Below are positions 22,424-32,675 of a stretch of DNA of 64,000 bases, piece after piece. The notes under the pieces were generated by a model. The model saw only the letters and a list, made by a program, of their open reading frames with translations, had not been told where the DNA came from and made no database searches. The stretch is from an uncultured Gammaproteobacteria bacterium (GTDB taxonomy: Bacteria; Patescibacteriota; Patescibacteriia; UBA9934; GWF2-40-263): assembly GCA_964399675.1 (NCBI GenBank), contig CAYNRK010000001.1, positions 424-64,423 of the forward strand, written 5' to 3'. The position numbers and the translations under genes were made by a program. Positions within the stretch are counted from its first letter, which is position 1; each line of letters starts with the position of its first letter.

Positions 22424-22519
22424 GCGTCTTTGCGAGGAAGCCCGTCAGACGGGCTGACGAAGCAATCTCCGCATAACGGGGATTGCCGCGTCGGCTTTTG
22501 GGCTCCTCGCAATGACACA
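22424..22519. repeat. Long imperfect hairpin repeat (MITE-like), copy 1 of 3
   Basis: Left arm 'tcTTTGCGAGGAaGCCC..GACGAAGCAATCtCCG' pairs with right arm 'CGGggATTGCcgCGTCggc..GGGCTCCTCGCAATGACACA'. It shares TIR-like ends (TTGCGAGGAG / CTCCTCGCAATGACAC) and the core GACGAAGCAATC with the copies at 24424 and 32535. Confidence 0.6.
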
Positions 22520-22566
22520 GGAGAGGTTGAGTAAAACCAAGATTTCTTATACTCTATCCTCAGCAC

Positions 22567-22642
22567 GGGCCCTTGGCGAAGTTGGTATCGCGCTTGCATG
22601 GCATGCAAGAGATCGCGGGTTCGAGCCCCGCAGGGTCCACCA
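22567..22642 (+). tRNA. tRNA-Ala (anticodon GGC), CCA encoded
   Basis: Full manual fold. Acceptor gggccct/agggtcc with G3:U70, D-stem gcga/tcgc, anticodon stem cttgc/gcaag with loop atGGCat, T-arm gcggg-ttcgagc-cccgc. Confidence 0.85.
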
Positions 22643-22737
22643 CCGAGCTGAGCTCGGTTGACTGCAAAAAAGCAAAGCTGAGCTTTGCTGCAGGTCATCC
22701 GTGTATTCTTCAGCGAGGCAGTCGAGCTGAGCTCGAC
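22643..22737. promoter_or_regulatory. Three spaced perfect palindromes sharing the core AGCTGAGCT: ccgagctgagctcgg at 22643-22657, gcaaagctgagctttgc at 22672-22688 and gtcgagctgagctcgac at 22721-22737
   Basis: Seen directly. They lie between the tRNA-Ala 3' end and an AT-rich -10 (tttaatataat) upstream of the gene at 22776. They could be operator sites or tRNA-flank hairpins. Confidence 0.4.
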
Positions 22738-22775
22738 GTGGCAAGCCAATCAAAAATTTAATATAATCAGAAAAT

Positions 22776-23567
22776 ATGGATAAGACCAAACTATTTTTCG
22801 TAATCGCAATGGTTATCATTGTGGCAATTATAATTGCGGTTTCACAGAAAGACCAAATCATTTCTGTAACCAATTTTGAGGAATGCATAGACGCTGGCAA
22901 TCCAGCAATGGAAAGCTATCCAAGGCAATGTCGTCATAATGACAGAACATACACTGAAGACATTAGTGACAAAACAAAAGAAGTTAAACCCATTTATGTC
23001 TCTACTCCAAAGCCAAACGATATTATTACAAGTCCTTTGACTATAAAAGGAAAAGCAATTGGTACATGGTTTTTTGAAGGAGACTTTCCGGTTATGCTAA
23101 CTGATTGGGATGGCAAAATTATTGCTGAAGGATTTGCTGCGGCAAAAGGTGATTGGATGACAGATGAGTTTGTGCCATTTACTACTTCGCTTGAGTTTGT
23201 TAATCCTGAATATCGCAACAATGGAACTTTGATTTTGCAAAAGGACAATCCATCAGATTTGCCTGAACTCGATGATGCGCTTGAAGTATCGATTTATTTT
23301 GAGGAGCAAGAAGATGTTGGTCCAAAGCTTCCAAAAGACAAGGCTTATAAAATTGCAGATGATAGTGAAGAATGTTCAATGGCTGGAATTGCAAAAGAGG
23401 ATCACGTTTATAATGAGATTACAAAAACTTGGTGGATTGATTTGGAAAGAGAACCAGAACTTGAAAAGGACGGATGCAATCCAGCGTGTGTTGTTAATGA
23501 GGAAACCTTAGAAGCAGAAGTAAATTGGAGATGTACCGGCCTTATTCCAGAGGAAGAAATCGAATAA
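22776..23567 (+). CDS. Membrane-anchored protein with a Gmad2-like immunoglobulin-type domain
   Basis: N-terminal TM (FFVIAMVIIVAIIIAV). 'ITSPLTIKGKAIGTWFFEGDFPVMLTDWDGKIIAEGFAAAKGDWMTDEFVPF' resembles the Gmad2 Ig-like fold. Acidic C-terminus with Cys pairs. Confidence 0.45.
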   Translation: MDKTKLFFVIAMVIIVAIIIAVSQKDQIISVTNFEECIDAGNPAMESYPRQCRHNDRTYTEDISDKTKEVKPIYVSTPKPNDIITSPLTIKGKAIGTWFFEGDFPVMLTDWDGKIIAEGFAAAKGDWMTDEFVPFTTSLEFVNPEYRNNGTLILQKDNPSDLPELDDALEVSIYFEEQEDVGPKLPKDKAYKIADDSEECSMAGIAKEDHVYNEITKTWWIDLEREPELEKDGCNPACVVNEETLEAEVNWRCTGLIPEEEIE

Positions 23568-23662
23568 TTAAATTAAAAAATACCTCAGTATTGTCTGGGG
23601 TGTTTTTTGTTTGACGAATAACACAGGACTAGATATGATCATTTCGCAACCCGGAGGATGCA

Positions 23663-30267: not shown

Positions 30268-30306
30268 AAACAGCCCATTGATTGACATCAGGGCTGTTTT
30301 ATTTTC
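30268..30306 (+). terminator. Rho-independent terminator after rpsR
   Basis: aaacagccc-attgattgacatca-gggctgtttt followed by attttcg. Confidence 0.6.
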
Positions 30307-30486
30307 GATTCCTTACATTTTTATATAAAATCATTGCGTGGCGTAGGTTTATAGATAAGGATTAAATTATTGACCCCATACCATAAAAGTTGATTTTGTT
30401 AAAGAAATATGTTAAAAATGTGTGTAGATTTTTGGCTAATATATAACACTTTTGCAAAAAAATTTAAAAGTTCACTCTAATTTTTT

Positions 30487-31476
30487 ATGAAAACATACAT
30501 AAGTCACATTAATGGCAAAGATTATCTATATGCGACAGATAGTATTTATGTTGCAAAGGGAAAGACCATTCAAAAAAATAAATCGCTTGGGCCTGCAGAA
30601 AATGTCAAAGATATAGCGAGAAAGAAAAAAGATTTTTTCGAATATGTTCTTAAAGAGGAAGCAAGACTAAGGTTTGCTCACTGGGGCAGACATATTCACG
30701 ATCCAAAATTTGTTAAATATGTGAGGATAGAAAAAATTGAAGAGTTGCGAGCTAGACTCTACCGCTCAAAGCAGGGTATGGGTGACATTGCGACAGGGGC
30801 AATGGAAACCGCATTTCAGGTTGATTTTATCTATAATTCGAATAGGATTGAGGGAAGTAAAATTCCAAGAGAGAGTGTTGAGGAGATTGTTCGTCAGGGA
30901 GCGAAAAATAAGAACAATGAAGTCACAAATACAATTCGTGCCATCAATTTTATTGATAGCTCATTTCGATTCAACCTTAAACAGATTGATAAATTGCACG
31001 ACATCCTCCTTGCACATCAACCAAGTCAGCTCGGATTACGAAAAGAAAAAGTTGTAGTTGGGAATGCTGACGTCTCGGAGTGGCAGCACATTAAAAAAGA
31101 TATGAAATCGCTCCTTGATTGGTATAAGAAAAGTGAAAAAAATATGTATCCACCAGAACTTGCCTTCACTTTTTACTATCGATTTGAGCGCATCCATCCA
31201 TTTGTTGATGGGAATGGCAGAGTTGGTAGACTCCTCATGAATGCCATTTTAAGAAAGCATCGCTATCACCCAATGATTATATGGAACAAGAGAAGACAGA
31301 CCCACATGTCTGCTTTTAAAAAATATATGGACGGGAGAGCAGAATACTACTTTAAGTTTATGGCTGAACAGTTTATAAAGACCCACGAGATTTACACCGA
31401 GAAAATCGACAAAGCCTTTAATCTCGAAGAGCAGATACAATACTTTTTACAACCTTCATCCTACAATCTAGATTAG
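30487..31476 (+). CDS. fic: Fic-family protein (AMPylase/adenylyltransferase fold), class-II-type with an internal inhibitory motif
   Basis: Intact Fic motif 'HPFVDGNGRVGRLLMNAIL'. N-terminal to it lies 'NSNRIEGS', which matches the (S/T)xxxE(G/N) inhibitory-helix motif. The gene stands alone between rpsR and epmA. Confidence 0.8.
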   Translation: MKTYISHINGKDYLYATDSIYVAKGKTIQKNKSLGPAENVKDIARKKKDFFEYVLKEEARLRFAHWGRHIHDPKFVKYVRIEKIEELRARLYRSKQGMGDIATGAMETAFQVDFIYNSNRIEGSKIPRESVEEIVRQGAKNKNNEVTNTIRAINFIDSSFRFNLKQIDKLHDILLAHQPSQLGLRKEKVVVGNADVSEWQHIKKDMKSLLDWYKKSEKNMYPPELAFTFYYRFERIHPFVDGNGRVGRLLMNAILRKHRYHPMIIWNKRRQTHMSAFKKYMDGRAEYYFKFMAEQFIKTHEIYTEKIDKAFNLEEQIQYFLQPSSYNLD

Positions 31477-31514
31477 TGGATATGTGAAAAAGAGTGGATG
31501 GACACAAATGAATT

Positions 31515-32531
31515 ATGACTATTGGAAAGATAAATGATTTAAAACAAATTACTCTTGAGCGACAAATTATAAATCAATCGATCCGTGCTTTTTTTAGTGA
31601 CCGTGGATTTGTTGAGGTTGAGACTCCAATCATAGTGGCTTCGCCTGGGATGGAACCAAACTTATCGCCGTTTGAAACAGTGGTTAGTGAACCAGACGGA
31701 AAAGAACATAAAGCAAGCCTAATCACAAGCCCTGAGTATTCCATGAAGAAGTTGCTTGGGAGTGGAATGGAAAAGATTTTTACAATTACAAAAGTATTTC
31801 GAAACGAAGAAGAGTTTGGTGGAAATCACAACCCGGAATTTTCAATGCTTGAATGGTATAAGCAAGGAGGGGATTATAAAGAGTGTATGGGGGAGACCAG
31901 AGAACTCATCCGTGTCATCTCGACCGAGGCTTTTGCCGAGCGGAGAGATCTCGAAGATGCGAGATCTCTCGACTCGCTGTCGCTCGCTCGAGATGACAAG
32001 TGGGAGAGAACTAGCGTCAGGGATTTGTTTCAAAAATTCGCAGACATTAATCTTGATTCAGATGATTTGAAAGAAGCTTGTAATAAGTTAGATATTCGAA
32101 CAATCCAAGATGACACAGAGTCGGATCTTTTTTATAGAATTTTTCTTTCAAAAATCGAACCAAACATTTCAGGCAATACATTTGTTTTTGATTATCCAAA
32201 ATATCAAGCAGCATTGGCAAGGCTCACACCTGACAAAAATTATGGCGAGCGATTTGAGCTTTACATGAACGGACTTGAGATTTGTAATGGTTTTACAGAA
32301 CTCACTGACGCAGATGAACAACGCAGACGATTTGAACAAGAAGCAGAAGAACGTCGTGCGCTTGGCAAAACAGTTCATCCAATTGACGAAGAACTGCTCA
32401 AGCTGTTACCCTCCATCCAGAATCCAACATACGGAAACGCACTTGGTATTGATCGGTTGCATATGGTGCTTACCGAACGATCGTCAATCAATGATGTATT
32501 AGCGTTTCCTGTTTCTAAACTTTTAAGTTGA
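31515..32531 (+). CDS. epmA: EF-P lysine-34 lysyltransferase EpmA (GenX/PoxA; class-II aaRS-like)
   Basis: Class II motif-1-like 'FVEVETPIIVASPGMEPNLSPFET'. Approx 338 aa with no anticodon-binding domain. Located immediately upstream of efp. Confidence 0.7.
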   Translation: MTIGKINDLKQITLERQIINQSIRAFFSDRGFVEVETPIIVASPGMEPNLSPFETVVSEPDGKEHKASLITSPEYSMKKLLGSGMEKIFTITKVFRNEEEFGGNHNPEFSMLEWYKQGGDYKECMGETRELIRVISTEAFAERRDLEDARSLDSLSLARDDKWERTSVRDLFQKFADINLDSDDLKEACNKLDIRTIQDDTESDLFYRIFLSKIEPNISGNTFVFDYPKYQAALARLTPDKNYGERFELYMNGLEICNGFTELTDADEQRRRFEQEAEERRALGKTVHPIDEELLKLLPSIQNPTYGNALGIDRLHMVLTERSSINDVLAFPVSKLLS

Positions 32532-32534
32532 TCC

Positions 32535-32675
32535 GTGTCATTGCGAGGAGCCCCGACCCTCTGGGTCGTGGGCGACGAAGCAATCTTCGTTTTTACGAGG
32601 ATTGCTTCGCTAGCGCTCGCAATGACACAAGATGAGAAATGCGAGGATTGCTTCGCTAGCGCTCGCAATGACGCA
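32535..32675. repeat. Long hairpin repeat (MITE-like), copy 3 of 3, with an internal 45-bp tandem duplication. Lies in the efp leader
   Basis: TIRs gtgtcattgcgaggag ... ctcgcaatgacac. The core gacgaagcaatc / gaggattgcttcg. The right arm 'gcgaggattgcttcgctagcgctcgcaatgac' is duplicated at 32641-32675. The repeat ends 7 nt before the efp ATG. Confidence 0.65.

Follow-up and report, generated by a model that had tools for sequence, protein, structure and literature searches.

Three long hairpins lie between genes in the 64-kb window analyzed here, by which we mean the whole 64,000-nucleotide stretch of contig CAYNRK010000001.1 shown above: copy 1 at 22425-22517, copy 2 at 24425-24526 with a fragment running to 24545, and copy 3 at 32536-32673. 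Copy 1 is found between a pyrF-like gene (21342-22349) and the gene for tRNA-Ala(GGC) (22567-22642), copy 2 between a phosphoribosyltransferase (PRTase) gene (23663-24331) and ychF (24554-25594), and copy 3 between an EpmA-like gene, a class II synthetase paralogue (31515-32531), and efp, which starts at 32683. An earlier note, made from the sequence by itself, had placed three hairpin copies here, each close to the start of a downstream gene, and both the positions and the gene context hold. The proximity is also as described, with gaps of 49 nt for copy 1 (tRNA), 27 nt for copy 2 (ychF ATG) and 9 nt for copy 3 (efp ATG). On the upstream side, copies 1 and 2 begin 75 and 93 nt past the stops of the pyrF-like and PRTase genes, and the 151-nt gap between epmA and efp consists almost entirely of copy 3. 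A terminator-like hairpin with a T-run (22381-22402, + strand) lies between the pyrF-like stop and copy 1, outside the repeat, and a sigma-70-like promoter match, TCGACA-17-TATACT (24372-24400, + strand), a match to the consensus only, is found upstream of copy 2. As set out below, the copies are insertions made of a self-folding unit, this type of unit flanks genes for small GIY-YIG nucleases of the Ssn kind in other bacteria, and the copies are probably gene-less inverted dimers of a repeat related to both the Ssn system and the CGTC-tagged repetitive extragenic palindromic (REP) sequences.

The sequences shared by the three loci are strongly enriched. The core GACGAAGCAATC occurs four times in the window compared to 0.37 expected, and the end motif CTCGCAATGAC, allowing at most one mismatch, seven times compared to 1.03 expected; neither count was matched by any shuffle. 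As the earlier note had proposed, every locus folds as a long hairpin, and it does so on both strands, with + strand energies of -59.6, -80.8, and -80.9 kcal/mol for copies 1, 2, and 3, and z-scores of -8 to -10 that no shuffle equalled. Copies 1 and 2 have GC contents of 60-64%, compared to 42.5% for the window. No further copies of the repeat were found in the rest of the 64 kb.

The enriched sequences had previously been read as terminal inverted repeats enclosing an internal core. They are instead the two halves of one self-folding unit, which also occurs singly. From its 5' end, this unit consists of a tag YGTC, the stem strand ATTGC, the segment GAG(GA), a variable inner hairpin often with a GNA triloop, the segment (GAC)GAA, the stem strand GCAAT, and a C. 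The outer stem thus has five Watson-Crick pairs, followed by the purine-rich bulge GAG(GA)/(GAC)GAA and then by an inner hairpin whose length varies from 0 to 60 nt. Seven mutually alignable units of 31-53 nt make up the three loci. All seven carry a CGTC or TGTC tag, four have the ATTGC...GCAAT stem while three have TTTGC or GTTGC variants, and their tails are CTC, CCC, or CTT. The long form with an inner hairpin is found in five units, and a short form (GTCATTGCGAG CGCTAG CGAAGCAATC) in two. Every locus is built around an inverted pair of units with the tags facing outward, and a self-complementary spacer of 7-13 nt forms the loop of the resulting hairpin of about 100 nt.

Copy 1 (22425-22517 from tag to tag) is the simplest of the three. 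Its left unit (22425-22470, + strand) has a CGTC tag, a TTTGC/GCAAT stem, a GAGGA...GACGAA bulge, the inner hairpin CCCGTC-AGA-CGGG, and the tail CTCC, while its right unit (22478-22517, - strand) reads TGTCATTGCGAGGAGCCCAAAAGCCGACGCGGCAATCCCC on the - strand; the 7-nt spacer between them (22471-22477) is the loop of the long hairpin. Copy 2 (24425-24526 from tag to tag) pairs a left unit at 24425-24472 on the + strand (CGTCGTTGCGAGGAAGG...GACGAAGCAATCTCC) with a right unit at 24486-24526 on the - strand (CGTCGTTGCGAGGAGGCCGGCAAGCCGACGAAGCAATCTCC), and is followed by an orphan terminal fragment at 24535-24545 on the - strand (GCAATGACACA / TGTGTCATTGC), which comprises a tag and the first stem bases, ends 8 nt before the ychF ATG, and is the remnant of an additional unit. 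Copy 3 (32536-32627 from tag to tag) has a long-form left unit (32536-32588, + strand) with a 22-nt inner hairpin, whose tag starts 4 nt past the stop codon of the EpmA-like gene (32529-32531), and a short-form right unit (32597-32627, - strand; TGTCATTGCGAGCGCTAGCGAAGCAATCCTC). A second right-hand unit (32643-32673, - strand) duplicates the first and ends 9 nt before the efp ATG (32683). The tandem duplication of 45 bp that had been reported within copy 3 is accordingly real, but is a duplicate of the right-hand unit with a period of 46 nt, 33 of 34 bases being identical between 32596-32629 and 32642-32675; Tandem Repeats Finder reported nothing on copy 3, which holds fewer than two full periods. 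Copy 3 also affects gene annotation. The public efp gene call (P0001) begins five codons early, inside the repeat, giving a product of 192 residues compared to 187-188 in most relatives, and the longest efp open reading frame (ORF; 32632-33246) likewise starts within the repeat. The early start is a repeat-driven mis-annotation.

EF-P homologues put the window near Candidatus Uhrbacteria, and we compared it with five related Uhrbacteria-like genomes whose EF-P is 70-76% identical. The gene order S6-SSB-S18-epmA-efp-recA is kept in all five. The gap between epmA and efp is only 3-10 nt in four of them, and in the fifth (L186) it is filled by 152 nt of unrelated AT-rich sequence. The unit is likewise absent upstream of ychF in the two relatives in which this region could be read, and from an 18.5-kb Uhrbacteria locus (L185). 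Empty sites, which the earlier note had suggested looking for, are therefore present at the orthologous epmA-efp and ychF positions, and the copies in the window are insertions, not a conserved leader of translation-factor genes.

The unit is found far beyond this lineage. A pattern joining both of its halves (TTGCGAGGAR, 8-38 nt, GACGAAGCAATC), by which loci are thus selected through two cores, matched 55 viral contigs and gave at least 120 matches among contigs from one genome per species. The matches listed include isolates of Bradyrhizobium, Inquilinus, and Rhodopseudomonas, a Tisiphia endosymbiont, long contigs labelled Chloroflexota, Ignavibacteriota, and Gemmatimonadota, ten contigs from Patescibacteria, and others labelled Zixibacteria, Bacteroidota, Verrucomicrobiota, Omnitrophota, Acidobacteriota, Nitrospirota, Desulfobacterota, and Clostridia. 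It is also present on plasmids of Methylosinus, Methylocystis, Methylobacterium, the cyanobacterium Aulosira, and Novosphingobium, one replicon of the last having it in at least 40 places. The earlier suggestion that the repeat would be new for this lineage thus fails on two counts, because the unit occurs across many phyla and belongs to a described superfamily.

Conservation across these loci is sharply delimited, setting in at YGTC and ending at the C after GCAAT. The tag positions, which like this C lie outside the search pattern, are conserved at 89-90% (Y), 94-95% (G), 94-95% (T), and 95-98% (C), and nothing is conserved farther out; the stem starts with A in 91% and T in 99% of cases, and GCAAT is followed by C in 98%, then by C/T in 97% and C/A in 85%. 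The inner segment forms a closed hairpin with a stem of at least 2 bp in 78% of cases compared to 15% of shuffles, using 69 different stem strands and mainly GNA triloops. Covariation, which had been proposed as a test, is thus evident in the inner hairpin, and it indicates that the unit folds within a single strand. Inverted dimers dominate, with 123 among the motif clusters compared to 65 single units.

The genes next to the units are unrelated to one another in many phyla. When 1203 ORFs of at least 100 residues near the repeats were clustered, only phage structural genes recurred; this cut-off concealed the Ssn genes of about 95 residues discussed below. A Pfam scan of ten genes bracketed by two dimers returned ordinary housekeeping genes and one fragment of a Mutator transposase.

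These data bear directly on the idea that the hairpins form a conserved structured 5'-leader RNA regulating translation-factor genes such as ychF and efp. The idea draws on the strong folding, on copies 2 and 3 ending 9-27 nt before start codons, on the promoter-like match upstream of copy 2, and on single units elsewhere, which are often found in sense orientation directly ahead of a ribosome-binding site; if the promoter match is real, copy 2 probably lies within the ychF 5' untranslated region. However, the relatives lack the unit upstream of both ychF and efp, the unit stands beside unrelated genes in many phyla, and copy 1 precedes the tRNA promoter and so falls outside any leader. Rfam searches of the window and 18 other loci, at gathering as well as permissive thresholds, yielded tRNAs, riboswitches, and generic hairpin noise but no matching family. 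In addition, G-T and A-C mismatches in the inner stem, compared as a test of strand-specific folding, number 11 and 7, without a clear preference for one strand. We therefore regard a shared leader as very improbable.

The other earlier reading was that of a miniature inverted-repeat transposable element (MITE) with promoter-proximal preference, which in its classical form has terminal inverted repeats and is moved by cut-and-paste through a DDE transposase. Like classical MITEs, for example the Correia element, the hairpins are small, gene-less, and intergenic, have inverted ends and a hairpin shape, may be co-transcribed with their neighbors, and are polymorphic in their insertion relative to the relatives. 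In these respects they do behave as inserted DNA. The remaining features of a MITE are missing. Target-site duplications are not visible at the three window copies, and across 118 non-redundant dimers their counts equal those of shuffled-pair controls for lengths of 2-8 and offsets of 0-4. Nor are the ends plain transposase-binding repeats, since end and core form one unit that also occurs alone, and neither a DDE parent nor any recurrent transposase was found near 175 loci. The preference for promoter-proximal or 5' sites does not survive either. For the 71 dimers whose neighboring genes could be oriented by rough ORF calls, 46 lie between genes running in the same direction, 14 between convergent, and only 11 between divergent genes, and the same-direction dimers are closer to the gene upstream, at median distances of 15 nt from its stop and 53 nt from the start of the following gene. 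A transposase does accompany the repeat in one Patescibacteria contig (L068, 557-1868), where a 308-residue fragment of the Mutator/IS256 family lies between two repeat dimers, but an insertion sequence may have integrated into a repeat cluster here. Taken together, a classical MITE is the least probable of the explanations considered.

A third possibility is that the copies arrived passively, as 3'-flanking repeats of the donor, together with horizontally acquired GC-rich genes. Copies 1 and 2 do follow genes of 55-63% GC (pyrF-like and PRTase) at the short distances given above and are themselves GC-rich, and the repeat family is typically found just past stop codons. On the other hand, copy 3 follows an EpmA-like gene of native composition, the genes are parted from copies 1 and 2 by terminator-like hairpins and AT-rich, host-like DNA, and L186 has a pyrF gene at the same place (47% protein identity; the closest homologues of the pyrF-like product are 47-54% identical) without any unit. 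Furthermore, a TG or G extension ahead of the tag is common to all three loci. The dinucleotide TG precedes the tag in five of the seven window units, compared to 13 of 423 units elsewhere and none of 20 at other loci from the candidate phyla radiation (CPR) (P=5.5e-7), and this shared signature points to amplification within the lineage rather than three separate imports. Passive arrival is accordingly unlikely.

Published work offers two frameworks in which the unit can be placed. Repeats of the CGTC-tagged REP superfamily have a CGTC/TGTC (or CCTC) tag, a stem starting with AT, and a 3-nt tail (consensus CCA), occur mainly as inverted dimers in intergenic regions near 3' ends, have no dedicated transposase, and include Neisseria dRS3 as well as Rickettsia RPE-4/RPE-6 (PMC3733652). 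That survey covered five phyla, and its authors noted that bulged types may have escaped it (PMC3733652). The second framework comes from Neisseria SsnA, a 94-residue single-domain GIY-YIG nuclease that binds and cuts an extended form of dRS3 (NTS, CGTCATTCCCGCGMAVGCGGGAATCYRG), acting on single-stranded DNA only and on the tagged strand only, with the cut a few nucleotides upstream (PMC11893778). Binding depends critically on the C that follows the palindrome, cleavage requires the three bases that precede it, and ssnA homologues of several phyla are flanked by such motifs, with Patescibacteria and Chloroflexi unmentioned in the main text of Chenal et al. 2025 (PMC11893778).

The window unit resembles the CGTC-tagged REPs in its tag, AT-starting stem, short tail, inverted dimers, intergenic position near upstream 3' ends, occasional intragenic copies, and lack of a dedicated transposase. 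It differs from the published families in being bulged, whereas these have an uninterrupted stem of 8-9 bp and a loop of 4-5 nt. The peptides listed for CGTC-1, -2, and -3 are other sequences, and the 2013 supplements contain neither this unit nor its peptides; a distinction from all four CGTC families is probable, as judged from published descriptions and peptides. Literature searches with the DNA of the repeat or its peptide strings returned nothing relevant.

The resemblance to the Ssn system includes the unpaired (C/T)GTC tag, the AT-starting stem, the conserved C right after the palindrome, and the large number of copies. Indeed, the GTC and C that are conserved at 94-98% and 98% in the unit occupy the same positions that SsnA needs. 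An Ssn probe sequence, used as a lead only, identified annotated GIY-YIG nuclease genes on plasmids, including the gonococcal homologue of SsnA, and next to these genes are tagged hairpins of a type particular to each host. Those of Planktothrix (TGTC ATTCT GAG TGAAAC GA AGAAT CTC) also have the GAG...GAA bulged design. On the Planktothrix agardhii plasmid NZ_LR882964.1 (L190, 17353-20613), the Ssn-like gene lies between an MmeI-type restriction-modification gene and the DISARM gene drmA, in an apparent defence island, and bulged tagged hairpins and truncated unit heads form arrays on its flanks.

In metagenome contigs, we searched for GAAGCAATC within 12-42 nt of the reverse-complemented coding sequence for I-E-x-x-N-P-x-W-x-D, a motif of the Ssn-like C-terminus, and obtained at least 120 loci. 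Several of their features go beyond what the pattern demands. In 115 of the 120 loci listed, an ORF matched an Ssn hidden Markov model (HMM), and in 105 of the 120 a complete inverted unit of the window type directly follows the ORF; of 50 listed loci in which this could be tested, 42 also carry a forward unit upstream. The commonest layout has one unit on each side with the tags outward (unit-ssn-unit), similar to an insertion sequence and with the polarity shown by the window dimers, the upstream unit ending a median of 27 nt before the start codon and the downstream unit starting a median of 11 nt after the stop. The flanked proteins are single-domain and have 93-115 residues (most 93-101), and their contigs have 36-68% GC. 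They are placed with the Ssn class (cd10448-like GIY-YIG, about 94 residues) by the Pfam GIY-YIG match (E about 1e-17) and by 44-54% full-length identity to the N. gonorrhoeae SsnA homologue. Near homologues of one flanked protein (64-77% identical) are labelled Magasanikbacteria, Moranbacteria, Paceibacterota, Minisyncoccia, and Patescibacteria; ssn genes labelled Magasanikbacteria and Moranbacteria are flanked by the window's unit type, and unit-flanked ssn genes are present in the CPR-labelled contigs L312, L316, and L317. This association shows that a large Ssn subfamily, CPR bacteria included, has the window's type of unit as its flanking repeat. In L312-L315 (Magasanikbacteria-labelled protein), the unit-flanked ssn gene is found directly upstream of PrgI-, TraC-like, and TraG-like genes of type IV secretion or conjugation. 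A Sphingopyxis metagenome-assembled genome (L154, 1708-2089) has two inverted single units bracketing a short ORF that matches the Ssn HMM weakly (E 1.6e-6), and is probably a unit-ssn-unit module that has degenerated. The Ssn-plus-unit pattern had no matches in viral contigs.

The architecture of these loci recalls REPIN elements and their REP-associated tyrosine transposases (RAYTs) (Bertels and Rainey 2011). In both systems, a short imperfect palindrome is arranged as inverted doublets that form a long hairpin, singlets are likely remnants, no target is duplicated, and the repeat also flanks an enzyme gene present in one copy. A REPIN mobilized by a Y1/HUH transposase could therefore be considered, given the unpaired tag and the presence of a Y1_Tnp gene in a related Uhrbacteria genome (L185). 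However, the tag is CGTC/TGTC and not GTAG, the flanked genes encode GIY-YIG nucleases and not Y1/HUH transposases, the Y1 gene of L185 is flanked by unrelated inverted repeats of 27 bp and lacks homologues both in the window and at the other loci, and the survey by Di Nocera et al. 2013 encountered no CGTC repeats on the flanks of a Y1 gene (PMC3733652). We consider mobilization by a Y1 transposase improbable. The L185 gene itself (GCA_001790825.1, 590-1450) encodes a 286-residue IS200/RAYT-like protein, and its own inverted repeats, GGGGTCAGGTCTGGAATCTGGAATTTT, are unrelated to the repeat of the window.

On balance, the three loci are probably ssn-less inverted dimers, with one extra unit and one fragment, of a hairpin repeat of the CGTC-tagged REP / Ssn-related kind, and the repeat is best filed as a bulged variant of this kind. 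It is probably recognized by Ssn as single-stranded DNA. Several observations weigh against this assignment. No ssn-like ORF is present in the 64-kb window or in 42 kb of related Uhrbacteria, and a GIY-YIG regular expression and the HMM, applied to the window and 175 unit-selected loci, found none except the weak match in L154, although the negative for those loci carries no weight because they are small random genome samples. The published SRM motif, HGTCWYN(0-2)YYVSBRHN(0-5)WNVSBRGN(0-2)RNCYNB, is unmatched in the window on both strands; the consensus short and long units and the Planktothrix unit fail it, while NTS and a Sphingobium unit pass. The window contains only gene-less dimers. The unit also differs from the known targets in having only five Watson-Crick pairs before the purine-rich bulge and the variable inner hairpin, so recognition of this interrupted stem by Ssn is suggested by gene adjacency only. 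The association itself is partly built in, as the scan pattern demanded the Ssn-like C-terminal motif and the HMM was trained on 53 of the same loci, leaving the other 62 as its independent part. Ssn is known as a nuclease and not as a transposase. Finally, single units are biased toward the sense strand, 34:4 in one phage group and 18:4 in genomes with no bias in other viral contigs, which the favored account leaves unexplained and which could instead mean selection at the RNA level, or an RNA-level or strand-of-replication effect; these counts are not independent, since related phages share homologous positions.

The phage group in question comprises the related contigs L006 (units at 4356-4388, 5563-5587, and 7063-7093), L025, L040, L048, L060, and about ten more, which carry many single units and encode a terminase, portal, and major head protein according to PHROGs. 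Their units frequently precede a ribosome-binding site and start codon by 6-29 nt, and one is separated from the major head gene by 6 nt. The group also has arrays of truncated 5' unit pieces, with no ssn gene found alongside.

If the loci are indeed Ssn-related dimers, their history could be pictured as follows. The dimers would be miniature derivatives of the unit-ssn-unit module that have lost the gene and retained its polarity, and would have been inserted and amplified within the Uhrbacteria-like lineage. A cognate Ssn would recognize them in single-stranded form, as arises for instance in replication or DNA uptake. At their present positions they would be passive, co-transcribed bystanders in intergenic DNA; the long hairpin may have side effects on mRNA stability or on the translational coupling of epmA and efp, which copy 3 probably breaks. 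A more specific version is that the window hairpins, which lack the gene, derive from a cross-phylum unit-ssn-unit module with an undescribed recognition architecture, combining a 5-bp stem, a purine-rich bulge possibly with tandem G.A pairs, and an inner hairpin whose length is free, and that a GIY-YIG single-strand nuclease marks and propagates them. We put this version forward tentatively, as a possibility that we hold to be rather unlikely.

Elsewhere in the window, three islands of 52-63% GC stand out from the average, at 21200-22400 (pyrF-like), 23600-24400 (PRTase), and 28000-28800, the last containing a gene named Peptidase_M50 in the matching contig L001. Related genomes have the order TPR-(pyrF)-ychF without the tRNA-Ala, Gmad2, and PRTase genes, and related Uhrbacteria (S6-SSB-S18-epmA-efp) also lack the Fic/DOC-family gene that is found at 30487-31476 between S18 and the EpmA-like gene. 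Long diverged internal repeats within a very large ORF region suggest a repetitive surface-type protein, and several acidic E/D-rich repeat tracts are alike across distant genes; these features were noted at 8900-15200 and also at 35548-37218, 17880-17960, and 61350-61410.

As a repeat, the element is ordinary, and the tempting idea of a shared regulatory leader for ychF and efp is set aside. What the analysis offers instead is the placement of these hairpins in a concrete and testable system, the Ssn nucleases having been described only in 2025, and the extension of that system to an overlooked unit type and to CPR bacteria. The published repeat-search motif misses the bulged type of unit, which is abundant in bacteria as far apart as Alphaproteobacteria, Chloroflexota, and CPR bacteria as well as in phage contigs, and surveys that use this motif would therefore undercount Ssn-linked repeats. 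Many spurious small ORFs and gene starts extended too far are likewise accounted for by these repeats, and the bulged units provide new candidate specificities for site-specific cutting of single-stranded DNA. If the nuclease-propagated module were real, it would constitute a nuclease-driven counterpart of the REPIN-RAYT system that operates even in the reduced genomes of CPR bacteria and has left strand-biased single units in phage head operons.

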